A DNA stretch of 64,000 bases from an uncultured Actinomycetes bacterium (GTDB taxonomy: Bacteria > Actinomycetota > Thermoleophilia > UBA2241). Both the position numbers and the translations under genes were made by a program. Positions 7,907 to 22,589 of the stretch are shown here, one piece after another. The stretch is taken from contig CAWJRV010000053.1 of assembly GCA_963845355.1 (NCBI GenBank), positions 14,156-78,155 of the forward strand, given 5' to 3'. Under the pieces are notes generated by a model. The model had not been told where the DNA came from and did not search any database. It saw only the letters and a list, made by a program, of their open reading frames with translations. Position 1 is the stretch's first letter, and every line of letters begins with the position of its first letter.

Positions 7907-8016
7907 CCGACGGCGTCGCCGGCTGCTCCAACGTGCCGCCGCGCGGGAACAGTCAGATGTCGGAAAGCCGGCCGTGCCTGAGCCGGCACGTCAGCAACGC
8001 ACCGGAAGGGGCGGCC

Positions 8017-8711
8017 ATGAACGTCGGTATCATCGGGTCGGGGCCAGTCGCTCGACTTTCGCGGAGCGTCTGCTGACCGTGGGTCAGGCGGTCATGATCA
8101 GCGCTCGCGACCCCGACGCGCGCAAGGACATGGGGCCCCGCGGTGTGTGGCCGTCGGCCAACGCGTGGGCGACCCTCAACTTCGATCAGGGCCGCGAGGC
8201 GGCGGCGGGCGGCTTCGCCGACGCCGCCGCGTTCGGCGAGCTGCTCGTGAACGCCACCGCCGGCACGGCGTCGCTACTGGCCTTCGGCGCCGCCGACCCG
8301 GCCGACATCGAAGGCAAGATCATCCTCGACCTGTCCAACCCGCTCGACTTCTCGCACGGCATGCCGCCGCGCCTCTCCATCTGCAACGACGACTCGCTCG
8401 GCGAGCGTCTGCAGGCCGCCTACCCGAACGCCCGGGTGGTCAAGACCCTGAACACGCTGAACGTCGCCGTTATGGTCGAGCCCGGCCGGCTCGGTGAGGA
8501 GACCGACGTATTCGTCGCCGGCAACGACGCCACGGCCAAAGCGTGGGTGACCGAGAACGTCCTGGAGGGCTGGCTGGGCTGGACCCGCATCGTCGACCTC
8601 GGCGACATCACGGCGGCGCGCGCCACCGAGATGTACCTGCCGCTCTGGCTGCGGCTTCTCGGCGTGACCGGCACGCCGCTGCTCAACGTGAAGCTGGTCG
8701 TCGGCCACTGA
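8017..8711 (+). CDS. NADPH-dependent F420 reductase-like NAD(P)-binding oxidoreductase (frame break near 8050)
   Basis: ATG-8017 follows GGAAGGGG and encodes MNVGIIGSGPV (Rossmann start), but that frame stops at 8076. The rest of the family sequence (STFAERLLTVGQAVMISARDP ... DLSNPLDF ... VVKTLNT ... DLGDITAARATEMYLPLWLRL) is in the -1 frame. One extra G at ~8050 restores GSGPVGSTFAERL. Confidence 0.75.
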
Positions 8712-8797
8712 CCTTCCGGGCGGAACTGCCGGCCGGCGTGCCGGCCGACCTCACCGCGGACCTAAAGGCCCCCCGCCACGGGCCGATACAGCACTGG

Positions 8798-9895
8798 ATG
8801 GATCGGCTCAGAAACAGACGGCCGACGAGGGCGGCGCCGGCGCTCGTCCTGGTGGCGCTCGCCGTGGCGACCGCCGCCACGGCGCTTCTCGCGCCCGCGC
8901 TGCTGCGCCCCGACCGCGCTCTGGCCGCGCCCGGCGCGACCGTCGCCGGACAGACTCAGACGCTCACGGGCCTCGAGGCCGCGGCCCGCGGGCAGCGCCG
9001 TCAGATGGCCGGCCTCGAGGCCCAGATGAGGGTCATCCGCGCCCGCTACAACGTCGACGTCGCCACGCTCACCCGCGCCGACTTTGCCCTCTCGCAGACG
9101 CGGCTGCAGCTCGCCCAGTCGCAGGCGGCCCTCGACCACCAGAGCGCCGTTGTCGGCGCGCGGCTGGCGGCGATGTACAAGATGGGCTCGTTTTCGATCG
9201 TCGACGTGCTGGCATCGTCGGCGTCGTTCACGCAGCTCCAAAGCCAGGTGACCTTCTTCAGCCGGCTGGCCCAGCAGGACCGGCGCGACGACAGCGACCT
9301 CGCGCAGCTGAACGCGCAGGTCGCCCAGCTGGTCACCGCCCAGACGAACCAGCGCCAAGCCTCTCTGACCGCCCAGGAGCGCGTCGACGCGCAGCAGCTC
9401 TCGATGTCCGACAAGATCGCCCAGCGGCGCGCCATCCTCGACGACCTGACCGCCAGGATCCAGAAGATCCTCGACGCGATGCGACCCGCCAAAGGCGGCG
9501 GCGGCCTCGAGTCGCCGGTGCCGCTCTCGAACCACTACACCCCGCTCACATGGGCCAAGGCGCTGCTGCAACAGCTCGGCATGCCGCTCACCGAGCAGAA
9601 CGTCGCCGCGGTCACGGCCTGGGAGCTCGCCGAAGGCGGTCACTGGCACAACTCGGCCCACTACAACCCGCTGGACACCACTATGCCCGAGCCGGGCGCC
9701 ACGGCCATGAACTCGGTCGGTGTCAAGGCCTATCTGAGCTGGGCGCAGGGCTTTCAGGCCACCATCGCCACGCTGCGCAACGGCTATTACGGGGGTATTC
9801 TCGCCGCGCTGCGCGCCGGCAACGACGCCATCGCCGTGGCCGACGCCGTGGCCGCCTCGCCTTGGGGGACGGGCAACTTCAGCGGCCTGCTCTAG
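8798..9895 (+). CDS. secreted coiled-coil protein (PcsB/RipA-like N-terminal region) with an unassigned C-terminal domain
   Basis: Starts at ATG-8798 (MDRLRNRRP) with a signal/anchor (APALVLVALAVATAATALLAPALL). About 200 aa are heptad-rich and Q/A/L-rich (AAMYKMGSFSIVDVLASSASFTQL). The C-terminal ~110 aa contain AWELAEGG...NPLDTT...NSVGVKAY. Confidence 0.6.
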   Translation: MDRLRNRRPTRAAPALVLVALAVATAATALLAPALLRPDRALAAPGATVAGQTQTLTGLEAAARGQRRQMAGLEAQMRVIRARYNVDVATLTRADFALSQTRLQLAQSQAALDHQSAVVGARLAAMYKMGSFSIVDVLASSASFTQLQSQVTFFSRLAQQDRRDDSDLAQLNAQVAQLVTAQTNQRQASLTAQERVDAQQLSMSDKIAQRRAILDDLTARIQKILDAMRPAKGGGGLESPVPLSNHYTPLTWAKALLQQLGMPLTEQNVAAVTAWELAEGGHWHNSAHYNPLDTTMPEPGATAMNSVGVKAYLSWAQGFQATIATLRNGYYGGILAALRAGNDAIAVADAVAASPWGTGNFSGLL

Positions 9896-10126
9896 CGGCA
9901 GGTCGAGGTACCTGCCGGAGCACGAAGACGAGCGAAGCTCGGCGCGGTTCGCCGGCGGCGCGCCCGCTGCAAGCAGCCTGCGCACGGCCGAGCGTTTCTT
10001 TGGAGGAGTCACCTCCCCACAGCGGTTTACGACCAGGAGGCCTTCGTCCCGCACACGTCCGAGCCTTCGCTCGCCACCCATCCTACCCGGCAGTCGCCCC
10101 TTCGGCGCGCCATCTGCCGTTATTGC

Positions 10127-10900
10127 TCACACCGAGCGCTGATAAGAGCGGAAGGCCCGCGTGGCCAGGAGCGTGCAGACCACCGCGAAGACCAGTAGAT
10201 AGAGCGTGTCCGCCATCACGCCACTCGACGACGCGCCGCTCATGAGCGACGTGCGCCCCGCCTGGATGGCCCAGTTGGCCGGGTTGTAGCGGGCGATGTC
10301 CTGGATCCACTGCGGCGCCAGGTTCTGCTGCAAGAAAGCCGACGACAGGAAGATCAACGGCAGCAGCATCATGTTGACCACGGCGATGACCGACTCCTCC
10401 TTGCGCAGCAGCAGCGCGACGCCGTTCGACAGAGAGGCGACACCGATCGACAGCAGGGTCGAGACGACGATCAGCATGACGGCGCCGGCCACGCCGCCGC
10501 CGAACCGCCCTCCGACGAGCAGCGCCAGGCCCACGATGATGAGGGTCTGGATGAGGATCGTGAGCACCTGCGGTGTGACGCGGCCGAGCATGATCGCGCC
10601 GCGGCTGGTAGGCGCCACCAGAAAGCGGTCCATGACGCCGCGGTCGAGGTCGTCGATCATGCCCATGCCGCTCCAGCCGCCCGCGAACATGGCGCTCATC
10701 ACCACGATGCCGGGCGTGAGGAACGTGATGTACGAGTTGGTCGTGAACCCCGGGATCTCGACGACCTTCTTGAACAAGGCGCCGAACAGGAGCAGGTAGA
10801 CGATCGGCTGGAACAGCGAGAGGGCCACAAACCAGGGCTGGCGCAGAAAGTTGCGCACCTGGCGGAGCGTCAGGTGATAGGTATGTCGCAGCGCTGTCAT
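10127..10900 (-). CDS. ABC-2 type exporter permease (DrrB-like)
   Basis: 257 aa with six predicted helices and ABC-2 family appearance. Its start overlaps the stop of the upstream ATPase gene. Confidence 0.8.
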   Translation of the reverse strand: MTALRHTYHLTLRQVRNFLRQPWFVALSLFQPIVYLLLFGALFKKVVEIPGFTTNSYITFLTPGIVVMSAMFAGGWSGMGMIDDLDRGVMDRFLVAPTSRGAIMLGRVTPQVLTILIQTLIIVGLALLVGGRFGGGVAGAVMLIVVSTLLSIGVASLSNGVALLLRKEESVIAVVNMMLLPLIFLSSAFLQQNLAPQWIQDIARYNPANWAIQAGRTSLMSGASSSGVMADTLYLLVFAVVCTLLATRAFRSYQRSV

Positions 10901-11877
10901 CGGGTGACCTCCGCGGTCGTGTCGGCCTGCTCGAAGCGGCGGCCGGTATGCATGAGATAGACGTCGTCGAGCGAAGGCCGGGCGACGGTGACCGAGACGA
11001 CGCTCACGCCGTGGGCCTCGAGGGCCTGCAGCACCACCGGCACGGCGCGCGCACCGTTGTCGGCGCGGGCGTGCAGCAGGCGGCCCTCGGCGACGACCAC
11101 GTCGTGGACGTCGGCGATCTGCGCCAGCGCAGCGGCGACGCGTCCGTTGGTCTCGGGCTCGCCGAGCTCGACGTGCACGGCATCGCCGTGCAGCTCGCTC
11201 TTCAGCTCGTCGGGCGAGCCGAGCGCCACGACCTTGCCCTCGTCTACGATCGCGAGGCGTCGCGCCAGCCGGTCGGCCTCTTCCAGGTAATGCGTGGTGA
11301 GCAGGATCGTGAGCCCCTCTTCATTGGCGAGCCGCTCGATCTCGGTCCACATGTCGGCCCGCGCCTCGGGGTCGAGACCGGTCGTCGGTTCGTCCAGAAA
11401 GAGCACATCGGGACGATGCACGAGCCCCATGGCGACGTCGAGCTTGCGTTGCATGCCGCCCGAGTAGGTGTCGGTGACGCGGCGCGACGCGTCGGCCAGG
11501 CCGAAGCGCTCCAGCATCGCGTCGACGCGCTGCTCGAGCGTACGCCCGCCCATGCCGTACAGCCGTCCCTGCAGCATCATGTTCTCGCGCCCCGTGGCGT
11601 GGACGTCGACCCCCGACTTCTGGGTCACGCAGCCGATCGCGTGGCGCACGAGGTCGGGCCGCTTGAGCACGTCGATGCCGGCCACGGTGGCCTGGCCCTG
11701 GTCGGGCCGCGACAGCGTCGTCAGGATCTTGACCGTGGTCGACTTGCCGGCGCCGTTGGGCCCGACCAGGCCGAACACGCTGCCGGCCGCGACCTCGAAA
11801 CCGACGCCGTCGAGCGCCCGCACCCCCTTTGGGTAGGTCTTCACCAGCCCCTGCGCCGAGATTGCCGTTTCCGTCAT
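10897..11877 (-). CDS. ABC transporter ATP-binding protein (DrrA/daunorubicin-resistance type)
   Basis: Walker A GPNGAGKST, signature YSGGMQRKL and Walker B VLFLDEPTTGLD, plus the C-terminal extension typical of DrrA-like ATPases. Confidence 0.9.
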   Translation of the reverse strand: MTETAISAQGLVKTYPKGVRALDGVGFEVAAGSVFGLVGPNGAGKSTTVKILTTLSRPDQGQATVAGIDVLKRPDLVRHAIGCVTQKSGVDVHATGRENMMLQGRLYGMGGRTLEQRVDAMLERFGLADASRRVTDTYSGGMQRKLDVAMGLVHRPDVLFLDEPTTGLDPEARADMWTEIERLANEEGLTILLTTHYLEEADRLARRLAIVDEGKVVALGSPDELKSELHGDAVHVELGEPETNGRVAAALAQIADVHDVVVAEGRLLHARADNGARAVPVVLQALEAHGVSVVSVTVARPSLDDVYLMHTGRRFEQADTTAEVTR

Positions 11878-11962
11878 GGTGGTACCGCCCTTTACCTGGT
11901 TGCTCGCGGCCGCCGCCAGGTGGCCGCCGCCAGGTGGCCGCCGCGAGCCGTGAGAGAACGTT

Positions 11963-12016
11963 CACAGTTTAGTTCCTAGATATTTCGATTGTCAAACTGT
12001 AATTCTGTGGTATATT
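11963..12016. promoter_or_regulatory. bidirectional promoter/operator cassette, copy 1 (DrrAB-like operon <-> MarR-toastrack gene)
   Basis: Minus strand: TTGACA (11995-11990), 18 nt, TAAACT (11971-11966). Plus strand: TTGTCA (11989-11994), 16 nt, TGgTATATT (12008-12016). 27/34 nt are identical to 18077-18110. ACAGTTT (11964-11970) is inverted to AAACTGT (11994-12000). Confidence 0.5.
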
Positions 12017-12101
12017 ATCTGCCAAGGAATCAGCGCTTCGCGAGCGAACAAGCGAAGCGATCGGCAGGCATGGCCCGTCCTACCCGGTAGCGAGGCGCAG
12101 C

Positions 12102-13226
12102 ATGACAGAAGACACGCAGAAGCTGATCGACGACGTCGGCATCGAGCTTGGAGAGCTGCGCCGCACAGCCGACCGTCTCGACGAAGCCGTGGCCACGCAG
12201 TTCGGCCTCAACCGCACCGATCTGCGCTGTATCGGGATACTGTACCGCCGCGGGCGCGTCACCGCCGGCGAGCTCGCCGAGGAGAGCGGCCTGACTCCCG
12301 GAGCGATCACCACGGTACTCGACCGCATGGAACGCGACGGCTACGCCAACCGGGTGGCCGACCCCAGCGACCGCCGGCGCGTGCTGGTCACCTCGACGAC
12401 CGCCACGCGAGAGCTTGGAGCGCGCGTATACGGCGAGGTCGAGCTGGCCGGGCGAGCGCTGCTCGAACAGATCGAGCCCGCCGGCATCACCGTGATCCGC
12501 GACTATCTGCGCGGCATCCGCGAGTTCTACGACGACCTGGTCCGCAGCGTGGCCACGCCGGCCGGCGTCGGCGTCGCGGGCGACACCGGCACGGTGACCG
12601 GCGCCGACGCGCCCCTGGAGGGCGCTTTCACGGCGCCGCTGGCCGGCGTACAGCTTGGCCGGCTCGAGTTCATCAAGGGCGCCGCCAAAGTGAAGATCGC
12701 CGTCGATGCGACACTGACCGAGCTCTACCGCGCCGAGTTCGACGGCGGTGTTCCCGACATCGTCGTCAACGGCGGCACGGTGACGATCGGTCACAAGCGA
12801 CGCTTTCTGCCGTTCGACTGGCGCGTCGCCAAGTCCGCTGTCTGGCTCAACCCCGCGGTGCCCTGGGAAGCCTCGCTCAAGGGTGGCATGTGGCAGCTCG
12901 CCGCCGACTTTCGCGGTCTCGAGCTGCGCTCCCTCGAGGTAGGCGGCGGCGCGAGCGACGTCGAGATCTGGCTGCCGGCGCCGGTCGGGGTCGTGGCGGT
13001 GCGCATCTCCGGCGGAGCGAGCCACGTGCGGTTGCACCGCCCGGCCGGCAGCGCGCTGCGCGCCGAAGTCACCGGCGGCGCCAGCCAGCTCGTGTTCGAT
13101 CGCAAGTCGCTCGGTTCGATCGGCGGTCGCAACCGCCTCGAGACGCCGGGCTTCGCGGCCGCGAGCGACCGCTACGAGGTGCGCCTGAGCGGCGGCGCGA
13201 GCGAGCTCGAGATCGACATCGTGTAG
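12102..13226 (+). CDS. MarR-type HTH regulator fused to a C-terminal GGAS beta-repeat (toastrack/LiaF-C-like) domain
   Basis: Residues ~1-150 are MarR-like (FGLNRTDLRCIGILYRRGRVTAGELAEESGLTPGAITTVLDRMERDGYANRVADPSDRRRVLV). Residues ~165-374 carry four spaced repeats (GGGASDVEIWLP, SGGASHVRLHRP, TGGASQLVFD, SGGASELEIDIV). No TM segment is present. Confidence 0.7.
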   Translation: MTEDTQKLIDDVGIELGELRRTADRLDEAVATQFGLNRTDLRCIGILYRRGRVTAGELAEESGLTPGAITTVLDRMERDGYANRVADPSDRRRVLVTSTTATRELGARVYGEVELAGRALLEQIEPAGITVIRDYLRGIREFYDDLVRSVATPAGVGVAGDTGTVTGADAPLEGAFTAPLAGVQLGRLEFIKGAAKVKIAVDATLTELYRAEFDGGVPDIVVNGGTVTIGHKRRFLPFDWRVAKSAVWLNPAVPWEASLKGGMWQLAADFRGLELRSLEVGGGASDVEIWLPAPVGVVAVRISGGASHVRLHRPAGSALRAEVTGGASQLVFDRKSLGSIGGRNRLETPGFAAASDRYEVRLSGGASELEIDIV

Positions 13227-13248
13227 GGAGCCGACCGCGGGCCGTGGT

Positions 13249-13650
13249 TCAGGTCGTCGTGCACAGCGGGTCTTCGGGGTGCTGTGCACAGTAGGCTGCC
13301 GATGGGCGTCCGCCGGGCTGCCGGCGGCGGCGCGCCAGGATCCACGCGGCGACGATGATGAGCGCGGCCGCAGCCAAGCCGGCAACGATCCAGGCGTTCC
13401 TGACAGACGCGCCCGATGAGCCGGACAGCGCGGGCGAAACGGCTGGCACAGTCCTGCCTCCGGTGGCGTGCGGCGGCAAAGCCGTCGAGGGTCGTGGCTG
13501 GGTGGGCGTCGCCAACGAGACGGTGCCCGGCTGTGCCCTGGCTCCATCGGTCCTGGCCTGCGCCGCCTGGACGCCCGTGGCGATCACGATCAATGCCAGG
13601 AGCAACGGACCGGCGAACAGCCCGAGCCGTCTGTGTGACTTGATCTGCAT
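13249..13650 (-). CDS. small secreted, C-terminally anchored protein (unknown function)
   Basis: ATG-13650 is preceded by GAGGTGAG. It has a signal peptide (LGLFAGPLLLALIVIATGVQAAQA), a Pro/Thr/Ser-rich linker, a C-terminal helix (AWIVAGLAAAALIIVAAWIL) followed by RRRRQ, and a short Cys-containing tail. Confidence 0.55.
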   Translation of the reverse strand: MQIKSHRRLGLFAGPLLLALIVIATGVQAAQARTDGARAQPGTVSLATPTQPRPSTALPPHATGGRTVPAVSPALSGSSGASVRNAWIVAGLAAAALIIVAAWILARRRRQPGGRPSAAYCAQHPEDPLCTTT

Positions 13651-13765
13651 GATCTCACCTCTGGACGCACGCGCCGCAGTCACGGCAGAGTCCGCGTCCC
13701 GATAAGCGGACGGGCAAGCCCGCCTGCGATTAGACCAGAGACGGTCTATGACCCTGCGGCGACCC

Positions 13766-13793
13766 GGTTAACCCTGTTGTCGCAGGGTTGACC
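13766..13793 (-). terminator. hairpin immediately after the histidine-kinase stop
   Basis: GGTTAACCCTG-ttgtcg-CAGGGTTGACC (10/11 paired), with no U-tract. Confidence 0.3.
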
Positions 13794-13795
13794 CA

Positions 13796-14848
13796 TCAGT
13801 CGTGAGGCGCGGCCAGCGGCAGTTCGAAGGCGATCGTCGTGCCCCGTCCCGGCGCGCTCGCCGCCGTGACGACGCCCCCGTGGCGCTCGATGATCCAGCG
13901 GGCGATGGCCAGGCCCAGGCCGCTGCCGCCGCGGTCGCGTGAGCGCGAGGCGTCGGCCCTGTAGAAGCGATCGAAGACGTGGTCCACGTCGGCCGGCGCG
14001 ATGCCGGGCCCCTGGTCAGCGACACTGACGGTCGCCGCCGCGCCCACCACCGCCAGCGACACCACGACCGTGTCGCCGGGCGCAGAGTGTTCGATCGCGT
14101 TCCTCACGACGTTGCGCAGGGCGCGCTCGAGGTGGGCCGCGTCGACGGTCGCGCTGACGGCGCCGTCCGGCGCCGTCAGCGCGACCGTCACCCCTCCCCG
14201 CTCGGCCATGGTGCGCATGCCGTCGGCCGTGGCTCGCACCAGCTCCGCCAGGTCGACCGGCGCGAACCGCAGCTCCTCTTGATGAGCGTCGATGCGCGAC
14301 AGCAGCAGCAGATCGGAGACGATGGCGCTCATGCGGTCGACCTCCTCCAGGCCGCTGCGCAGCGACTCGCGCAGCTCCTCGGTCTCGCTGCGCGGCGGGC
14401 CTGCCTCTCCGGCATCACCCCCCGGGCTGCGCAGCGCCACTTCGAAGTCGGCCTTCATGATGGCGAGCGGCGTGCGCAGCTCGTGCGAGGCGTCGGCGAC
14501 GAAGCGCTTCTGGGCACCGTAGAGTTCGCGGATGGGGTGCAAGGTGCGCCGCGCATACCAGAGCCCCAGCGCACCGACCGCCACGACGATCACGCCGTCG
14601 GCGGCCACGAGCTGCCAGCGCAGGCGGCTGATCGACCGCGAGGCCAGCTCGCCTTCGATCTCGTTCCCATGCTCGCTGGAACGACCCTGTGCGACGCCGG
14701 AGATGTTCGTCTTGACGGTTAGGTACATGATCACGCCCGACACGGCCACGAGCAGCACGACGATGGCCGTGAACAGCACCACGAGGCGCGTGGTCGCGCG
14801 GGCGAAGACGTCGGGGCCGCCGCTACCGGTCACCATCAGCTCAGGCAC
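13796..14848 (-). CDS. sensor histidine kinase
   Basis: Two TM helices, H-box ADASHELRTPLA, N box VVRNAIEHS, and G boxes DQGPGI and GGSGLGLAIA. Its start overlaps the end of the regulator gene by 8 nt. Confidence 0.9.
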   Translation of the reverse strand: MPELMVTGSGGPDVFARATTRLVVLFTAIVVLLVAVSGVIMYLTVKTNISGVAQGRSSEHGNEIEGELASRSISRLRWQLVAADGVIVVAVGALGLWYARRTLHPIRELYGAQKRFVADASHELRTPLAIMKADFEVALRSPGGDAGEAGPPRSETEELRESLRSGLEEVDRMSAIVSDLLLLSRIDAHQEELRFAPVDLAELVRATADGMRTMAERGGVTVALTAPDGAVSATVDAAHLERALRNVVRNAIEHSAPGDTVVVSLAVVGAAATVSVADQGPGIAPADVDHVFDRFYRADASRSRDRGGSGLGLAIARWIIERHGGVVTAASAPGRGTTIAFELPLAAPHD

Positions 14849-15515
14849 GCAGCCGGTAGCCGACGCCGCGCACGGTCTCCAGCAGGTGCGGTCCGCCGGC
14901 GCCGTCGACCTTGCGGCGCAGGTTCTTCAGGTGCACGTCGATCACGTTGCTGCCGGCGTCGTACTCGTCGTCCCAGACGTGGTCGAGAATGCGGTCGCGG
15001 CTGAGCACCTCGCCCGGGTGGCGCATGAGGAACTCGAGCAGGGCGAATTCCTTGACCGTGAGCTCGAGGTCCACGGCGCCGCGCCGCACGGTGCGCGAGA
15101 CCGGATCGAGCACGAGATCGCCGGCCGAAAGCATCGCCGGCAGGGCGCGGCGCGGGCGGCGCAGCAACGTGCGCACACGAGCCAGCAGCTCCTCGAAGGC
15201 GAAAGGCTTGACCAGGTAGTCGTCGGCGCCGCTGTCGAGGCCGGTCACCTTGTCGTCGGTCGTATCGCGGGCCGTGAGCATGAGCACCGGCACCGTGAGA
15301 CCACGCTCGCGCAGGTCGCGACAGATGCTGAAGCCGTCGAGGCCCGGCAGCATGACGTCGAGCACGACCAGGTCGTACTCGTCGTGCCGGCTGCGCAGGC
15401 GCGTCTGCGCAGCGCGGCCGTCGCCGAGCGTGTCGACCGCGTAGCCCTCCTGTTCGAGGCCGCGCTTGAGCACCTGGGCGAGCTTGTCGGCGTCCTCGAC
15501 AACGAGCAGTCTCAT
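14841..15515 (-). CDS. OmpR-family response regulator
   Basis: Receiver domain (MRLLVVEDAD...DLVVLDVMLPGLDG...LMLTARD) and winged-helix output domain (LTVKEFALLEFLMRHPGEVLSRDRILDHVW...VRGVGYRL). Confidence 0.92.
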   Translation of the reverse strand: MRLLVVEDADKLAQVLKRGLEQEGYAVDTLGDGRAAQTRLRSRHDEYDLVVLDVMLPGLDGFSICRDLRERGLTVPVLMLTARDTTDDKVTGLDSGADDYLVKPFAFEELLARVRTLLRRPRRALPAMLSAGDLVLDPVSRTVRRGAVDLELTVKEFALLEFLMRHPGEVLSRDRILDHVWDDEYDAGSNVIDVHLKNLRRKVDGAGGPHLLETVRGVGYRLRA

Positions 15516-15690
15516 GTCCTGCGTTCTACCCGGTTCGGGACGGCCGACGCAATGCCCGCGGTTGAGCCACCGGCCGGAAGAGGCGGCGATGAGCGCCGGG
15601 GCCCTCCTGCGCCGGGGCCCTCCTGCCCCGGCGCCCGCACCGCCCCGGGACCGAGCTGACGGTGATCACCGGCGAGCCGCGACAGAGTCG

Positions 15691-18045
15691 CTATGCGCCG
15701 ACCGGCGTCGCCGCGGCCGCCGTCGCACCCTCGGCGAGGCCACCGTGAGCTGCAGCGTCGCCTGCCGCATCGCCTGCCGCATCTCCTGCCGCGGCGCCCC
15801 CCGCCGGACCGCCGACATGCCCCTCGACGCTCACGTTGGGTAGCCACTCGAGCCAGCGCGGCAGGTACCAGTTCCAGTCGCCGAGCAGCTCCATGGCGGC
15901 CGGCACGATGATCGTGCGCACCACCGTGGCGTCGATCAGGACGGCGACGGCCAGGCCAAAGCCCATCTGCTGGAACATGACGAGCTGGCCGCCCGCCATG
16001 CCGGCGAAGACGCAGACCATGATCGCCGCGGCGCCCGTGATGATGCCGGCGGTGCGGCCGACACCGTAGGCCACCGCCTCGCGCGCGTCACCTGAGTGGT
16101 CGAAGCGCTCCTTGATGCGGCTGAGCAGAAAGACCTGGTAGTCCATGGAGAGACCGAACAGCAGGCTGAACAGAAAGAGCGGCACCCAGGCCTCGATCGT
16201 GTCGACGTGGGTCAGGCCGAGCAGGTGGGCGCCGAGGCCCTTCTGAAAGACGAGCACCATGAGGCCGTAGGCGGCGCCCACCGACAGCAGGTTCATGGCG
16301 ATCGCCTTGGCCGGAATGACGATCGAGCGGAAAGCCACGAGCAGCAAGACGAAGCTGAGCGACAGCACGACGGTCAGAGCGATCGGCAGCCAGCGGTGAA
16401 AGAAGGCGAGGTAGTCGACCACGAAGGCGGTGTTGCCGGAGACGTAGACCTTGGCGGGCGCACCGGCGAAGGCGGCCGGTACCATGGTGGCGCGAAGCTG
16501 CGTCACGAGAGCTCGCGTGGCATCGCCGGCCGGGTCGCCCGAAAGGCTGGTCGAGACCAGCGTCAGGTCGCCTGCCTTGTCGACGGTCACCTGTGCCGGC
16601 CCAAAGCGGCCGTCGCTTCTCATGGCCGTCTCGAGGCGTGCGACCGCCTGCTTGACCCTGGGCGCCGACGCCGGGCCGTCGACGACGATCTGCAACGGAT
16701 TGGCCTTACCCAGCGAGAAGTCCCGGCCGAGGATGTCCCAGCCCTGCTTGGAGTACTGGTCGGCCGGCAGGTAGCGCGCCGTCATGTTGGTGTTGCCGGT
16801 CTTCATCACGAGCACCGGCGACGCCAGCGTGAGCAGCGCCACGACGGCCACCGTGAGCCAGACCACAGGGCGGCGCATGATGGCGTGGGCGAGCCGCTCG
16901 AACAGGGCCGAGCCGGCGGCGGCGCGCCTCAGGGCCAGGTGCCCGACCACCGGCACGCGCAGGGCGTTCACGTGGTCCCCGAGCAGCCCCAGCAGGGCCG
17001 GCAGCAGGATCAGGGTGGTGAGCAGCGTCGTAAAGACGACCAGCATGACGCCGAGGCCCATGCTGATGGTGATGTCGAGCGGCACGATGACCATGCCGAG
17101 CATGGCCAGAAAGACGGTCATGCCGCTGAAGAAGATGGCCCGGTTGGCGGTGGCGCCGGTGGCCGCGATGGCGTCGATCCTAGCGAGGCCGCGAGCGCGC
17201 TCTTCGCGATATCGCGAGATCACGAAGAGCGTGTAGTCGATACCCACCGCCAGACCCATCATGGTGAGGACGTTCAGCACGAAGGTGTTCATCGGGTAGA
17301 TCTGGCCGATCAGGCCGGTCAAGGCGAGCGCCAGGACGATGCTGAGCATACTGAGAAGGAGCGGCAGGCCGGCGGTGACCAGCGCGCCGAACACGATCAC
17401 CAGGACGATCAGAGCCGCCGGAACGCCGAAGATCTCGGCCTTTTCCATGTCGCTCTTGGCAACCTGGGTGATCATCTCGTTCAGGCTGGCGTCGCCGGTC
17501 TGGGCCAGCGTAAAGCCGTGCCCCGCCCCGGCCACGACGACCGCATGCAGCCTGTCGACGTGTTTCATGGCCGTGTCCTGGTCGCCGGCCATGACGACCG
17601 GCAGCAGCGCCCCGCGGCCGTCTTTTGAGACCAGCGTCTGGTCGTGGGTCGCGTAGACGTTCGTGACGCTCTGCACCACGCCGGGCCCCAGCCCGGCGAT
17701 CTGGGCGGTCAGGCCTTCGACGTAGCGCCGAAACGCCGGGTCACCGACCTTGAGGCTCGCCGAACGCACGATGACGAAGTCGGTCATGCGCTGCGGACCG
17801 GTCAGACGCTTCTCGACCAGGTCCTGGCCGATCAGGCTGGCGGGCTTGCTGCCGCGAAACTGCATGTTCGACGTGACCCCGCTCGACAGCAACACGCCGA
17901 GCGAGGCCATCGCGATCGCAGTGAGAACGAGCCAGGCGCCGATGGTGCGCCAAGGATGAGTGGCGCTCGTTCGAGCGAGCCGCTCCGTGAACGACGACCC
18001 TCTGCCTGCCCGCCCTCTCGTGACGCCCTGCTCATGCTGATTCAT
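15691..18045 (-). CDS. MMPL family (RND-type) membrane transporter
   Basis: About 785 aa with two six-helix bundles and two extracytoplasmic loops, typical of MMPL proteins. ATG-18045 (MNQHEQ) follows GAGGGTGGGG; the GTG at 18057 is an alternative start. The C-terminal tail carries GDAAGDAAGDAA repeats. Confidence 0.85.
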   Translation of the reverse strand: MNQHEQGVTRGRAGRGSSFTERLARTSATHPWRTIGAWLVLTAIAMASLGVLLSSGVTSNMQFRGSKPASLIGQDLVEKRLTGPQRMTDFVIVRSASLKVGDPAFRRYVEGLTAQIAGLGPGVVQSVTNVYATHDQTLVSKDGRGALLPVVMAGDQDTAMKHVDRLHAVVVAGAGHGFTLAQTGDASLNEMITQVAKSDMEKAEIFGVPAALIVLVIVFGALVTAGLPLLLSMLSIVLALALTGLIGQIYPMNTFVLNVLTMMGLAVGIDYTLFVISRYREERARGLARIDAIAATGATANRAIFFSGMTVFLAMLGMVIVPLDITISMGLGVMLVVFTTLLTTLILLPALLGLLGDHVNALRVPVVGHLALRRAAAGSALFERLAHAIMRRPVVWLTVAVVALLTLASPVLVMKTGNTNMTARYLPADQYSKQGWDILGRDFSLGKANPLQIVVDGPASAPRVKQAVARLETAMRSDGRFGPAQVTVDKAGDLTLVSTSLSGDPAGDATRALVTQLRATMVPAAFAGAPAKVYVSGNTAFVVDYLAFFHRWLPIALTVVLSLSFVLLLVAFRSIVIPAKAIAMNLLSVGAAYGLMVLVFQKGLGAHLLGLTHVDTIEAWVPLFLFSLLFGLSMDYQVFLLSRIKERFDHSGDAREAVAYGVGRTAGIITGAAAIMVCVFAGMAGGQLVMFQQMGFGLAVAVLIDATVVRTIIVPAAMELLGDWNWYLPRWLEWLPNVSVEGHVGGPAGGAAAGDAAGDAAGDAAAHGGLAEGATAAAATPVGA

Positions 18046-18076
18046 CTGACACCCCACCCTCGGACTGCTGAACGGC

Positions 18077-18130
18077 CACAGTTTAGCGTGACGATATTTA
18101 GATTGTCAAATAATCATCTTCTCGTATAGT
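18077..18130. promoter_or_regulatory. bidirectional promoter/operator cassette, copy 2 (MMPL-RR-HK operon <-> long leader)
   Basis: Minus strand: TTGACA (18109-18104), 18 nt, TAAACT (18085-18080). Plus strand: TTGTCA (18103-18108), 16 nt, TATAGT (18125-18130). The geometry is the same as copy 1. Confidence 0.5.
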
Positions 18131-18475
18131 GCTGACCTGCTGAGCAAAGGCTACCGGCAGACTCCCCGCCGGGCGTCGCCCCAGCGGTGGAGATCGGGGT
18201 CAACTCCGGGAAGAACTCTCGAGGGTGTCCAGCGGCCTGGCGGCGAGGACCCCTGGATCGTTCGTCATCCTGCAGGGGTAGAAACCGTCATCCTTCAGAG
18301 GGATGGCGCCAGCCCGCGCCCGCCCGCGACGGCCCGCGGGCGGGCGCCGGCGGCCGCGGGCCGACGCCCTGCGACCAGCCGCGGCCGCCGGTCCACGCGC
18401 CGTCACAGCGCCGGAGCGATCGCCGGTCGTGCTGATGATAGGCTGTCGAGCGAACGTGATGGAGGTTTCCCGCGC

Positions 18476-19600
18476 ATGACCACCGAGACCGCACCGACCA
18501 CCCTTCCCTACCGCGCGCCGATGGGCGCCGGCCCGGCCGAGATCGACACTCCCGCGCTGCTGCTCGACCACGACAAGCTCAGCCGCAACATCGCACGCAT
18601 GGCCGCCTTCGTGGCCGGCGGCCCGGCGAAGCTGCGACCGCACAGCAAGAGTCACAAATGCGTCGAGATCGCCCGCCTGCAGCTCGCCGCCGGCGCGACG
18701 GGCATCACCTGCGCCAAGGTCGGCGAAGCCGAAGCGCTGGCCGACGGCGGCATCACCGACATCCTCATCGCCAACCAGATCGTCGGGCCGATCAAGATCG
18801 CCCGTCTCATAGCCCTGGCTCGCCGCTGCACCGTCACGGTGGCCGTCGACGATGCCGGCAACGTCGCCCAGCTCTCGCAGGCCGCTGAGCGCGCCGGCGT
18901 CGGCATCCGCTGCTACGTCGAGGTCGACATTGGCATGGGTCGTTGCGGCGTGCCCGACGGAGCGGCCGCGCTGCGGCTGGCGCGGCTCATCGACGAGAGT
19001 CCGGGGCTGGCCTTCGGCGGGCTGCAGGCCTACGAGGGACACCTGCAGGAGCTGGAGCCGCTCGACGAACGCATCGCGCTCACCAGGCGCGATATGGAGC
19101 GAGCCCGCGCCGCCAAAGAGGCCGTCGAAGCCGGCGGCCTCGCGGTCGGGCAGGTGAGCGGCGGCGGCACCGGCACGCACCTGGTCACCGGCCGCCTGCC
19201 CTTCATGACCGAGTTGCAATGCGGCTCGTATGCCACCATGGACGCCGAGTACAAGGCGGTCGGCGGGGCCGACTTCGACAACGCCCTCACCGTGCTCGCC
19301 ACGGTCGTGAGCCGGCCGCGCCCAGAAAGCGCCGTGATCGACGCCGGCCTCAAGGCGATCACGCCCGAGTTCGGCCAGCCGGCGGTGTTATGCGACGGCG
19401 CGGGCTGGCGCGGCTTCTCCGAAGAACACGGCGAGCTCACCCTGAGCGGACCGGCGCGTGACCTGCGCGTCGGCGACAAGCTCGAGCTGATCCCCCGTCA
19501 CGGCTGCACCACCGTCAACCTCTACGACCGTTTCCACGTGATGCGCGAGGGCCGGCTGATCGACGAGTGGACCGTCGCCGGGCGGGGGCGCAGCCAATGA
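18476..19600 (+). CDS. PLP-dependent D-threonine aldolase / D-serine dehydratase-like (DSD1, alanine-racemase N-terminal fold) enzyme
   Basis: 374 aa with a TPALLLD...LRPHSKSHKC motif (PLP lysine context) and a C-terminal LIPRHGCTTVNLYD typical of the D-TA/DSD1 family. Confidence 0.75.
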   Translation: MTTETAPTTLPYRAPMGAGPAEIDTPALLLDHDKLSRNIARMAAFVAGGPAKLRPHSKSHKCVEIARLQLAAGATGITCAKVGEAEALADGGITDILIANQIVGPIKIARLIALARRCTVTVAVDDAGNVAQLSQAAERAGVGIRCYVEVDIGMGRCGVPDGAAALRLARLIDESPGLAFGGLQAYEGHLQELEPLDERIALTRRDMERARAAKEAVEAGGLAVGQVSGGGTGTHLVTGRLPFMTELQCGSYATMDAEYKAVGGADFDNALTVLATVVSRPRPESAVIDAGLKAITPEFGQPAVLCDGAGWRGFSEEHGELTLSGPARDLRVGDKLELIPRHGCTTVNLYDRFHVMREGRLIDEWTVAGRGRSQ

Positions 19601-19611
19601 CCGGCGCAGAC

Positions 19612-19706
19612 GACGACCGGCGCGGCGCAGGCGAGCGGCGAGGCACAGCCGAACGGCGAGGCACGGGCGACGACCGGCGAGGCACGGGCGAGCGGCGAAG
19701 CGCAGG
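19612..19706. repeat. imperfect repeats (57-nt period with an internal CGGCGAGGCAC motif in 3 copies)
   Basis: 19612-19649 versus 19669-19706 match at 32/38 nt. The motif CGGCGAGGCAC recurs with spacings of 18 and 21 nt. Confidence 0.8.
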
Positions 19707-19713
19707 CGTCTCC

Positions 19714-20730
19714 ATGACCGACGAAGCCTTCACACGCGGCATCCCCAAGGCCGAGCTTCACCTGCACATCGAGGGCACGCTCGAGCCCGAGATGATGCTC
19801 GAGCTCGGCGCCCGTAACGGGGTGCACGTGCCCTACGCCGACGCAGACGAAGCGCGCGCCGCCTACCGCTTCGCCGACCTGCGCGCCTTCTTGCACCTCT
19901 ACTACCGCAGCACGGCGGTGCTGCTCCACGAACGGGACTTCTTCGAGCTGACGGCGGCCTACCTGCGCCGCGTGCAGGCCGACGGCGCCCGCCACGTCGA
20001 GATCTTCTTCGACCCGCAGAGCCACCTCGATCGCGGCGTGCCGTTCGGCGCGGTGATCGGCGGCATCGCCGCGGCGCTCGCCGAAGGCGAGCGCCTGCTC
20101 GACATCTCCTCACGACTCATCATGTGCTTTTTGCGCGACGAGAGCCCGCGCAGCGCCCTCGAGGTCCTCGAACTGGCGCGGCCGCATCGCGACCTGATCG
20201 CCGGCGTAGGCCTCGATTCGGCCGAGGTGGGCCATCCGCCGGGCGAGTTCGCCGAAGTCTTCGCGGCGGCCCGCGAGGCGGGCTTTGCGGCCGTGGCCCA
20301 CGCCGGCGAGGAAGGTCCCGCGTCGTATGTCGCCGACGCGCTCGACCAGCTCGCCGTGCGACGCATCGACCACGGCGTGCGAGCGATCGACGACGCCGCC
20401 CTCGTCGCCCGCCTGCGGCGCGAGCGCGTCACGCTGACCATGTGCCCGCTTTCGAACCTGCGCCTCGGCGTCGTCGCCGATCTCGCCGAGCACCCGCTCA
20501 AGCGCCTGCTCGACGCCGGCGTGCCGGTCACGGTCAACTCAGACGACCCCGCCTACTTCGGCGGCTATCTGGTCGACAACTACCTGGCAGTTGGCGCCGC
20601 CCTGGGTCTTGGGCGTGCCGACATTGCGACCCTCGCCCGCAACTCGATCACCGGTTCGCTGCTTTCCGCCGAACGCCAGGCGGGACTGCTCGCCGAGATC
20701 GACGCCTTCGTCGGGGCGACACTCGGCTAG
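19714..20730 (+). CDS. adenosine/adenine deaminase (ADE-type member of the adenosine deaminase family)
   Basis: PKAELHLHIEGTLEPEMMLEL, HAGEEGP and VTVNSDDPAYFG metal/catalytic motifs. An alternative start at ATG-19597 (ATGA-coupled to the upstream stop) would add a 39-aa Arg/Gly repeat extension. Confidence 0.85.
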   Translation: MTDEAFTRGIPKAELHLHIEGTLEPEMMLELGARNGVHVPYADADEARAAYRFADLRAFLHLYYRSTAVLLHERDFFELTAAYLRRVQADGARHVEIFFDPQSHLDRGVPFGAVIGGIAAALAEGERLLDISSRLIMCFLRDESPRSALEVLELARPHRDLIAGVGLDSAEVGHPPGEFAEVFAAAREAGFAAVAHAGEEGPASYVADALDQLAVRRIDHGVRAIDDAALVARLRRERVTLTMCPLSNLRLGVVADLAEHPLKRLLDAGVPVTVNSDDPAYFGGYLVDNYLAVGAALGLGRADIATLARNSITGSLLSAERQAGLLAEIDAFVGATLG

Positions 20731-20740
20731 AAGACTCCGG

Positions 20741-20795
20741 CGCGCGGTCGGAACACCGGGGCGCGCGGTCAGAACACCGGGGCGCGCGGTCAGAA
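20741..20795. repeat. 21-nt tandem repeat, ~2.6 copies
   Basis: CGCGCGGTC(G/A)GAACACCGGGG at 20741-20761 and 20762-20782, then a partial copy to 20795. Confidence 0.9.
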
Positions 20796-20858
20796 GGCGC
20801 GCACGCCGCGCGGCATCACACTTTCTGTCTACGGCCGGGGCGCGATATCCTAACGCGC

Positions 20859-21365
20859 ATGGCCCGCCTCGTGACACCGTCGACGGACTACCAGGATTCG
20901 TACCTGCGGGCGCTCGCGGAGTTCCACGACGAGCGCCGCCATCTCGAGCTGGGCCTGGCCACGCTGCGCGACCGCGCCACCTTTGAGCGGTTCGTCGCCG
21001 CCCTGCGCGCCGAAGAGCATCTTCGGGCCGGCGATCACTCGGGCCGCGTGGCGCAGACGAACCTCTGGTGGGTCGAAGACGACGAGTTCGTGGGCCGCAT
21101 CGCGCTGCGCCACTCTCTGAACGCTGGCCTGCGCAGCGTCGGCGGCCACGTCGGCTACGAGATCAGACCGAGCTTCCGGCATCGCGGCAATGCCACCGCC
21201 ATGCTCGCTGCTGCTCTGCCGGTGGTCTTCTCGATGGGGATCGATCCTGCGCTCATCACCTGCGACGTGTCCAACACCATCTCGCGCCGTGTGATCGAAG
21301 CCAACGGCGGGCGCTACGCCGGCCGCGACGCCGACGAGCTGCACTTCTGGGTGCCCACGTCGTAG
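20859..21365 (+). CDS. GNAT family N-acetyltransferase
   Basis: 168 aa starting MARLVTPSTDY. The acetyl-CoA loop is RHRGNATAMLAAAL. The 5' part of the track ORF 20124..21365 lies over the deaminase gene and is rejected. Confidence 0.7.
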   Translation: MARLVTPSTDYQDSYLRALAEFHDERRHLELGLATLRDRATFERFVAALRAEEHLRAGDHSGRVAQTNLWWVEDDEFVGRIALRHSLNAGLRSVGGHVGYEIRPSFRHRGNATAMLAAALPVVFSMGIDPALITCDVSNTISRRVIEANGGRYAGRDADELHFWVPTS

Positions 21366-21414
21366 CCGGCGCGGCGGCCGTGCGGGGTGTGCGGCCGCGC
21401 AGGGTGTGCGGCCG

Positions 21415-21711
21415 CTAGCCTGAGCGCCGGCGCTGAGCCTGCGCGTCGCGCAGGTCGCGCAGGTCGCGAGCCTTGATCTGGCTCAACCGGAAGACCTTCG
21501 CGTGTGCGCGCAGCGAGGCCGGCACGTAGTCGTCGACGGCCTCTTCGGCGCCGCCGGCGCGCACAAAGATGTAACCCGTGTGATTGCCGACCAGGCAGCC
21601 CCACTCATAGGCCTCCTGAAAGCCCGGACCTTGACTGATGGTCTCGTCGATCGCGTCGAGACACACGTCGGGATCGTGCGGCACGACGACCAGGAATCGC
21701 GCCCGGGTCAT
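21415..21711 (-). CDS. hypothetical small protein
   Basis: 98 aa. ATG-21711 is preceded by a strong AAGGAGGGG. The composition is ordinary (MTRARFLVVVPHDPDVCLDAIDETISQGPGFQEAYEWGCLVGNHTGYIFV). No family recognised. Confidence 0.55.
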   Translation of the reverse strand: MTRARFLVVVPHDPDVCLDAIDETISQGPGFQEAYEWGCLVGNHTGYIFVRAGGAEEAVDDYVPASLRAHAKVFRLSQIKARDLRDLRDAQAQRRRSG

Positions 21712-21911
21712 GTCCCCTCCTTTGCGCGCTGGAGATGACCCCGGCATCCCCTCTGGCGACGGTGACCAAACCGCGATGTCCCGCTCGATTATGATGAGGC
21801 CCGACGCAGGTCGTCGCCCAGCAACCGCGGCGATCTGCATACTGGGCGGAGCCGGCAACGGCACACCGAGCGCACACCGGCAGGAGCAGACCGGGCGGAA
21901 CCGACAGGAGG

Positions 21912-22589
21912 GTGGCCGTGGACGACAGGGTACTGCGAGTGGTCGCGTGGGTGGGCATCGTCTCGTGCCTGTTCTTGGGCTTCTGGCTGCGCACCGGCCA
22001 TACCTGGGTCGTGTTCGTAGTGATCGGCGGGCTCTGCGTGGCGTACCTCGCGGTCGGCGCCCGGCACGACAAGAAGGCCTCGAGCGTGCTGCCTGCCTCG
22101 CTCGACCGCCTGGCGTACTTCAGCGACGACGCCAGCGTGGCCTTCGCCTGGCTGTGGCGGAAGGGACGCGCAGGACGGCTTCGCATCTTGCGTTCGGACG
22201 ATCGTCCCGCCGAGAGCCCCGATGCCGCGACCGGCCAGACCCCCGTCTTCGACGGCGGCGATCAGCAGCAAGTGGTCGATCGCGACGTCCAGCCGCACCG
22301 CACCTACCACTACACCATTTTCGTCGCGGATGCCCGGGGTCGTTGGTCGGACCCCATCCACCAACCGGTCCTCACCGACACGCCGAATGACCGGGAGGCC
22401 ATCGAAGCCACCTACAACGGCCCGCCGCCGGGATCGCCAGAAGCCGAGGCGCTGCTGCATACCCGCCCGTTCTCAAGAGAGAGCTCGCTCACCAACGCAG
22501 TCGCGGGCGTCGCCACCGACCTGATCTTCTCGGCGGCGTCGGTGTTCGCCGCCGACAAGCCGAGCGAGGGCTGGGAGGAGATCAAGTAG
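21912..22589 (+). CDS. hypothetical membrane protein (2 TM + beta-sandwich-like domain)
   Basis: Two N-terminal helices (VVAWVGIVSCLFLGFWL, WVVFVVIGGLCVAYLAV), then a soluble region with an FN3-like YHYTIFVADARGRWS motif. The start is GTG-21912 or GTG-21918, just after AGGAGG. Confidence 0.5.
   Translation: MAVDDRVLRVVAWVGIVSCLFLGFWLRTGHTWVVFVVIGGLCVAYLAVGARHDKKASSVLPASLDRLAYFSDDASVAFAWLWRKGRAGRLRILRSDDRPAESPDAATGQTPVFDGGDQQQVVDRDVQPHRTYHYTIFVADARGRWSDPIHQPVLTDTPNDREAIEATYNGPPPGSPEAEALLHTRPFSRESSLTNAVAGVATDLIFSAASVFAADKPSEGWEEIK

Follow-up and report, generated by a model that had tools for sequence, protein, structure and literature searches.

Toastrack-ABC operons, which link a Toastrack protein genetically with an ABC transporter (ATPase and permease) and with a DNA-binding protein, have been described together with actinobacterial versions by Ravi et al. 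(2024, mSystems, PMC11237479), who named PDB entry 4QRK as the prototype of the fold and proposed that Toastrack is an intracellular docking surface coupling membrane-proximal signals to transcription. Here, we compare these operons with a locus in a window of 64,000 nt (positions 14,156 to 78,155 of contig CAWJRV010000053.1, assembly GCA_963845355.1) from an uncultured soil/peat bacterium of the Thermoleophilia that is represented by a metagenome-assembled genome (MAG) of 2.16 Mb and 57% completeness. Between positions 10127 and 18130 of this window, a DrrAB-like ABC-2 exporter lies divergently to a regulator that is soluble and consists of a MarR domain with a directly fused Toastrack domain, whereas the Toastrack proteins of the described operons are separate and usually membrane-anchored and their regulators are of the GntR or ribbon-helix-helix type; the term "MarR" is absent from the text and supplement of that study. 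The exporter and regulator genes are separated by an AT-rich cassette of ca. 60 nt, a putative bidirectional promoter/operator, of which a second copy sits before a nearby gene for an MMPL transporter. Our preferred reading, to which we assign a probability of roughly 60%, is that regulator, exporter and cassette constitute a three-gene functional module, that the MMPL gene was newly recruited to it, and that the other genes of the stretch are independent. Toastrack-plus-ABC operons are already known; what is new here is the MarR-Toastrack/ABC-2 module with its compact bidirectional control region and the lineage-specific copy of this region before MMPL.

Gene pairs of the MarR, MepR-MepA and EmrR-EmrAB type likewise combine a MarR winged-helix regulator with a divergent exporter and promoters that overlap in the intergenic region, and the fold of the regulator described here matches MarR, MepR, OhrR and HpaR structures. 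Unlike these classical pairs, our locus features an additional Toastrack of ca. 200 residues, and the arms of its candidate operator are 23 nt apart instead of forming a compact palindrome of 16 to 20 bp. The likeness to LiaFSR and VraTSR is looser: in these modules, a Toastrack (LiaF or the C-terminus of VraT) modulates transcriptional output and a kinase with a small sensing region is found nearby, but LiaF is membrane-anchored and acts on the LiaS/LiaR pair with its NarL-type regulator, while the two-component system close to our regulator is OmpR-type, dispensable in relatives and unlinked to the Toastrack protein. In Listeria, PadR operons that encode DUF1700 and DUF4097 proteins (LltR; PMC6624303) also tie a winged-helix repressor genetically to a Toastrack (DUF4097), though with PadR in the place of MarR, with separate proteins and without an ABC exporter in the operon.

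All genes that an earlier interpretation of this DNA from its letters only (the sequence-only reading) had named in the 8-kb stretch were found at their places when gene calls were checked with a map of open reading frames (ORFs) and domain scans against Pfam and NCBIfam. The genes and control region of the proposed module are the following:

10127-10900, minus strand: ABC-2 permease (PF01061, E 1.4e-29), second gene of the exporter operon
10897-11877, minus strand: DrrA-like ABC ATPase (TIGR01188, PF00005 and PF13732)
11956-12016, both strands: cassette copy 1, putative bidirectional promoter/operator between the ATPase and regulator genes
about 11959 and 12023: predicted transcript starts
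12102-13226, plus strand: MarR-Toastrack regulator of 374 residues (PF01047, E 5.8e-14)

The stop of the ATPase gene overlaps the start of the permease gene. As in the DrrAB exporters for daunorubicin and doxorubicin, the permease is of the ABC-2 type and the ATPase carries a C-terminal DrrA1-3_C domain (PF13732, E 3e-9) and passes the NCBIfam cut-off for DrrA (TIGR01188, 329.9 bits against 312.45). The permease reaches 127 bits with the DrrB model TIGR01247, under its cut-off of 223, and satisfies only the generic PF01061; different from the DrrAB exporters, there is also no biosynthetic cluster nearby.

The regulator is composed of a MarR winged helix (residues ca. 1 to 150), a disordered linker (152 to 172) and a Toastrack beta-helix (173 to 374). 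Its N-terminal half is readily recognized by PF01047 (52 bits against a cut-off of 24.6) and by Foldseek, which returned many MarR structures with template-modelling (TM) scores of ca. 0.6 to 0.7 (target-normalised). The "toastrack" label given to the C-terminal half finds no support in Pfam, with no match to residues 170 to 374 alone even at E values up to 10 and no precomputed Pfam domain over this half in any of 120 homologues, yet it stands by profile and by fold. A profile built from 50 homologues matches 4QRK over residues 178 to 368 (E 1.6e-9), and the AlphaFold model of the protein, which has a mean predicted local distance difference test (pLDDT) score of 86 and is all-beta with a pLDDT above 90 from residue 176 onwards, finds the same structure as its best Foldseek match (E 2e-10, target-normalised TM score of 0.79, 214 columns). 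The C-terminal half is, hence, a divergent Toastrack subfamily outside of the current Pfam models for the DUF4097/DUF2154/DUF2807 superfamily. No hydrophobic or transmembrane segment was found in the regulator, which therefore is a soluble cytoplasmic fusion.

For an analysis of synteny, we took ca. 20 kb around the regulator orthologue from 16 relatives and mapped the proteins of the window onto each of them. In all 15 relatives with this flank available, the ATPase and permease genes lie next to the regulator gene in divergent orientation, and the sequence-only reading, which had proposed neighbourhood conservation as a check of the whole 8-kb combination, is contradicted in that only the regulator and the ABC genes stay together. 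Homologues are labelled Thermoleophilia or Actinomycetota in public records, and the related contigs come from MAGs of soil, bog and palsa. A wider survey for fusion proteins across 401 genomes of the phylum revealed full-length fusions of 40% to 44% identity recurring in a second family, where a DrrA-like/ABC-2 pair is again found divergently at four of eight such loci and an exporter of the major facilitator superfamily lies upstream at one locus. In further families, free Toastrack homologues with 35% to 45% identity to the C-terminal domain are encoded inside DrrA-like/ABC-2 operons (loci L072, L074, L075 and L094), with a divergent TetR regulator at one of them. Judged from these gene neighbourhoods, the conserved unit is a Toastrack together with an ABC-2 exporter, and at our locus the transcription factor is fused to the Toastrack. 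A search of 1.84 billion cluster representatives returned 262 at E up to 1e-30. Both protein halves were matched in 110 of the best 150, and 98 of these 110 have a length of 340 to 430 residues.

We note that four members of the genus carry a second, paralogous pair of ABC ATPase and permease genes directly downstream of the conserved pair, which is absent from the window and shows 38% to 43% (ATPase) and 26% to 28% (permease) identity to the window proteins. These pairs are located as follows:

L024, 5767-7373: paralogous ABC pair
L030, 5666-7344: paralogous ABC pair
L031, 6163-7841: paralogous ABC pair
L035, 5646-7321: paralogous ABC pair

In genome G008, locus L035 appears to have splits or frameshifts in all of its regulator, ATPase, kinase, response regulator, MMPL and aldolase genes, for which assembly errors are a likelier explanation than decay of the whole locus.

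The cassette between the ATPase and regulator genes contains two back-to-back sigma-70-type promoters whose overlapping -35 boxes form the near-palindrome TTGTCAA. On the minus strand, towards the ABC genes, TTGACA (11995-11990) is followed after 18 nt by TAAACT (11971-11966), and on the plus strand, towards the MarR gene, TTGTCA (11989-11994) is followed after 16 nt by TATATT (12011-12016), here with a TG extension. A dyad of ACAGTTT (11964-11970) and AAACTGT (11994-12000) with 23 nt between its arms overlaps both promoters. The duplication of this cassette that the sequence-only reading had reported is real: positions 11956-12014 and 18070-18128 are direct repeats with 71% identity in an ungapped alignment, a 34-nt core has two matches compared with zero expected from shuffles and occurs nowhere else in the 2.16-Mb MAG, and even a 15-nt core with up to two mismatches is confined to the two cassettes. 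Likewise, the two cassettes hold every one of the six sigma-70-like promoter matches in 9800-18600, with 0.3 expected.

Of 88 family genomes, 24 contain copy 1, each of them exactly once, while a reversed control pattern gave no match, and a species-wide scan found the cassette once at each of 13 loci, two of them in unrelated phyla, which are probably chance matches. The consensus of the family reads CAGTTTA.T.cCa.gATatTT.GAtTGTCAAACt.Tt..t.TGTGGTATA.T, so that conservation extends beyond the promoter hexamers to the spacer stretch ATATTT.GA and to the ACAGTTT-N23-AAACTGT dyad. Upstream of distant fusion genes we found long AT-rich dyads with 9 to 36 nt between their arms, and we infer that such wide dyads fit an extended operator that possibly accommodates more than one dimer. 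Genomes G010 and G011, in which the kinase has no orthologue, have also retained the cassette, which therefore goes with the MarR protein and not with the two-component system.

Two further observations concern the regions in front of fusion genes. The leader of the regulator gene (12017-12101, plus strand) opens with GCCAAGGAA, which is conserved in several genera, and holds a hairpin, GCGCTTCGC...GCGAAGCG; these features may belong to the operator or to an RNA element. Upstream of distant MarR-Toastrack genes lies a conserved element of ca. 110 nt (L095, 7640-7760; also at L098, L100 and L101) with a -10-like GCTATCCT at its start and a GC hairpin, GCCCCCGGC...GCCGGGGGC, followed by TCTC at its end. 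It matches no Rfam family at the gathering threshold and might represent a small RNA or an attenuator. Rfam also gave no credible match in 8000-22000 of the window or in four distant loci.

The second copy of the cassette is an insertion of ca. 60 nt in the 5' leader of the MMPL gene:

15691-18057, minus strand: MMPL-family transporter of the resistance-nodulation-division superfamily (PF03176 in two stretches, E 6.8e-84)
18070-18130, both strands: cassette copy 2 in the MMPL 5' leader, lineage-specific
about 18073: predicted transcript start
18146-18210, minus strand: probable ancestral MMPL promoter region with a -10-like TAGCCT (the reverse complement of 18148-18153)

The MMPL leaders of seven relatives can be aligned to either side of this position, where they have a short GC-rich stretch of ca. 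10 nt instead of the cassette. Among 89 family genomes and the 13 loci of the species-wide scan, copy 2, which would make the cassette the shared cis-element of the sequence-only reading, was found in this genome only, and two metagenome scans yielded no match to the junction between cassette and MMPL. Its minus strand reads towards MMPL with TTGACA (18109-18104), 18 nt and TAAACT (18085-18080); on its plus strand, TTGTCA (18103-18108) and TATAGT (18125-18130) are separated by 16 nt and the TG extension of the -10 box is lost. Of the 36 columns that are strongly conserved in the family, 30 agree with the consensus in copy 2, which therefore is a diverged and selectively maintained cassette and no assembly artefact. 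Its similarity to all orthologous cassettes is about equal (33 to 44 of 60 positions), so that no donor can be named. A target-site duplication around the insertion was considered and rejected, since the flanking CTGCTGA motifs are ancestral and present in relatives.

The MMPL ORF opens at a GTG (18057), and an ATG at 18045 behind GAGGGTGGGG agrees with the start in relatives; the protein would probably begin there and have 784 rather than 788 residues. Copy 2 is situated between the probable ancestral -10 box of MMPL and its ribosome-binding site and would add a proximal promoter ca. 28 nt from this ATG. Directly upstream of TAGCCT, the alignment of the seven relatives revealed a genus-conserved block (18173-18210, GCGTCGCCCCAGCGGTGGAGATCGGGGTCAAC...) whose centre differs in two genomes without the two-component system, and block and TAGCCT together are probably the ancestral MMPL promoter with an activator site. 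An RNA structure was also considered for the conserved block between the MMPL and aldolase genes, but covariation was unfavourable on both strands and we therefore treat it as regulatory DNA. The MMPL protein itself has multiple hydrophobic segments in two clusters, satisfying the two-domain layout with ca. 12 helices, and scores 261 bits with the MmpL3 equivalog model without reaching its cut-off of 1400.

These results suggest a mechanism in which the regulator would bind the cassette and repress both divergent promoters, given that MarR-family regulators of divergent exporters commonly behave in this way and that non-hexamer positions of the cassette are conserved. The Toastrack domain would take in the signal, and it would do so by contacting the exporter or some other partner close to the membrane rather than through a small ligand alone; we favour this route because the Toastrack subfamily accompanies DrrAB-like exporters whether fused or free and because of the docking-surface proposal of Ravi et al. 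(PMC11237479). In this genome only, a diverged copy of the cassette has been inserted into the MMPL leader, where it would supply a new proximal promoter and probably bring MMPL under the same regulator.

Several points weigh against this reading. Copy 2 shares only 16 of 40 variable columns with copy 1 and has lost the right arm of the dyad, so that it could be a promoter only, and its descent from copy 1 is unproven. An assembly gap in the close relative G001 coincides exactly with the MMPL leader, and the insertion can, consequently, not be dated. Moreover, the gap of 23 nt between the dyad arms is atypical for a single MarR dimer and the assignment of the dyad as operator is putative, and with a MAG of 57% completeness further copies of the cassette could exist.

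The best-surviving alternative, which we nevertheless regard as unlikely, is that copy 2 raises the expression of MMPL without any control by the MarR protein, and that the conserved positions outside of the hexamers merely reflect spacers or UP-like AT tracts. The missing right dyad arm and TG extension would fit this explanation, as would the fact that the identity between the two copies lies mostly at columns that include the hexamers. Against it, copy 2 has kept the non-hexamer stretches CACAG, GATATTT.GAT and GAACG within its overall agreement with the conserved columns, spacer sequence is not normally conserved between genera, and the 15-nt core is restricted to the two cassettes.

Ranking after this is the possibility that the MarR domain senses a small ligand or oxidant while the Toastrack only oligomerises, e.g., by bridging two dimers over the wide dyad, which we likewise find unlikely. 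It would be compatible with the intact MarR domain and with the wide dyads in two families, whose arms are 20 to 36 nt apart and which suggest more than one dimer per operator, and the single cysteine of the regulator, Cys43, is invariant in the close family. However, this residue is replaced by valine, alanine or threonine in 27 of 99 diverse fusion proteins, and we have therefore rejected redox sensing via Cys43 as a general mechanism; the free Toastrack paralogues in ABC operons point to a partnership with the exporter and not to pure DNA bridging.

Beyond the regulator, the stretch contains these further genes and elements:

13249-13683, minus strand: small ORF with a likely ATG start at 13650 and a ribosome-binding site (GAGGTGA) before it
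13796-14848, minus strand: sensor histidine kinase (HisKA and HATPase_c)
14841-15515, minus strand: OmpR-family response regulator (PF00072 and PF00486), overlapping the kinase start
15513-15531, minus strand: conserved promoter-like GGGTAGAAC-N7-ATG element before the response regulator

On the other side of the regulator, MMPL and the two-component system are found only inside the genus, and not always. About six members of the genus have the same gene order, and MMPL orthologues in the genus have 80% to 91% identity. In the nearly complete genomes G010 and G011, MMPL lies directly beside the regulator, and no kinase orthologue was found anywhere in them (the best match has 42% identity and covers only the catalytic core). 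Conversely, G007 and G021 have the two-component system without an adjoining MMPL gene, and G007 has no MMPL orthologue, with a best match of 52% identity compared with the 80% to 91% of orthologues. In four other genera, only the regulator-ABC pair is found at this place, and the closest homologues of kinase and MMPL are encoded elsewhere in the genome.

The sequence-only reading had also held that all genes of the stretch are tied together by the duplicated cassette, but it is found only before the ABC operon, the MarR gene and MMPL. The GGGTAGAAC-N7-ATG element before the response regulator is kept in all relatives, including G007 and G021 where MMPL is not upstream, and is the probable promoter, of a leaderless or near-leaderless type, of the two-component system itself. 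In relatives, a strong GC hairpin that forms a terminator after MMPL separates it from the two-component system. In our genome, the 16-mer AGGAGGGCCCCGGCGC is found as an exact tandem duplication between MMPL and the response regulator (15593-15624, minus strand). This duplication takes the place of the GC-hairpin terminator, and read-through from MMPL into the two-component system may for this reason be specific to this genome, where some of it is possible.

The small ORF encodes a protein with a signal-like N-terminus, a middle part rich in proline, serine and threonine, and a C-terminal transmembrane helix followed by RRRR. Its GC content at third codon positions is only 0.81, compared with ca. 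0.9 in the adjoining genes, and the suspicion of a false ORF was rejected given homologues with up to 50% to 67% identity. These homologues are always monocistronic, and three of them sit in unrelated neighbourhoods. The gene is found at none of the equivalent positions in relatives, which lack the ca. 570-bp stretch between regulator and kinase that carries it. The small protein is secreted or anchored and its gene is a real but unlinked neighbour; this gene and the two-component system are independent neighbours with expression signals of their own.

Intramembrane-sensing kinases of the BceS/LiaS type have two transmembrane helices separated by a loop of less than ca. 25 residues and are linked to a BceAB-type ABC transporter or LiaF. 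The kinase of our locus, which had been counted among them, contains two transmembrane helices and leaves no space for a HAMP domain, but the assignment does not hold: its loop comprises ca. 33 residues, the adjacent ABC transporter is of the ABC-2 type with a permease unlike FtsX or BceB, and the response regulator is OmpR-type rather than NarL-type (its top NCBIfam match, RppA, reaches 247 bits and is slightly below the cut-off of 250). The kinase is, furthermore, not co-conserved with the ABC system or with the Toastrack protein, and the defining features of Bce- or Lia-type modules are absent here.

We consider it quite improbable that the ABC exporter, the regulator, MMPL, the two-component system and the small protein work together as a single integrated envelope-stress/export system with co-regulation via the cassette. 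The conserved order in about six genus members, the two cassette copies in this genome and the envelope or export links that each of the families has elsewhere would agree with it, but MMPL, the two-component system and the small gene have been gained or lost independently, copy 2 was found in no other scanned genome, the two-component system is preceded by a promoter-like element of its own and by an ancestral terminator, and homologues of the small gene occur in unrelated contexts. The envelope-stress label would, in any case, come only from the roles of these families elsewhere. Very improbable, finally, is that the OmpR-type response regulator nearby, and not the MarR protein, acts on the cassette. 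The two-component system indeed sits between the two copies, and regulators of this type often govern adjacent transporters, but the cassette shows full conservation in the kinase-lacking genomes G010 and G011, is conserved in four genera without an adjacent two-component system and contains no tandem direct repeats at a spacing of 10 to 11 bp.

Our preferred reading of a MarR-Toastrack/exporter module with a newly recruited MMPL gene may be of wider interest. Members of this Toastrack subfamily carry a plain "MarR family" label in public records and are missed by Pfam models, and MarR-Toastrack proteins form at least 110 clusters at 50% identity in public data. It is a tentative suggestion that they represent a widespread, unrecognised class of one-component regulators in which the Toastrack would dock on the exporter, at the C-terminal domain of the ATPase or at the permease, and report transporter activity or membrane state to the DNA, and that the portable cassette of ca. 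60 bp could wire new genes such as MMPL into this control. If true, BceAB-BceS flux sensing or MalK-MalT sequestration would have an analogue here that is fused and dispenses with a kinase. Toastrack domains have their place in well-known envelope stress systems such as LiaF and VraT, and what they bind could be sought in a simple setting with a soluble fusion of Toastrack and DNA-binding domain that has one compact operator and one obvious partner, the ABC-2 exporter. Copy 2 before MMPL would, in turn, be a clean natural case of regulatory rewiring in which a promoter/operator piece of ca. 60 nt was copied into the leader of a neighbour.

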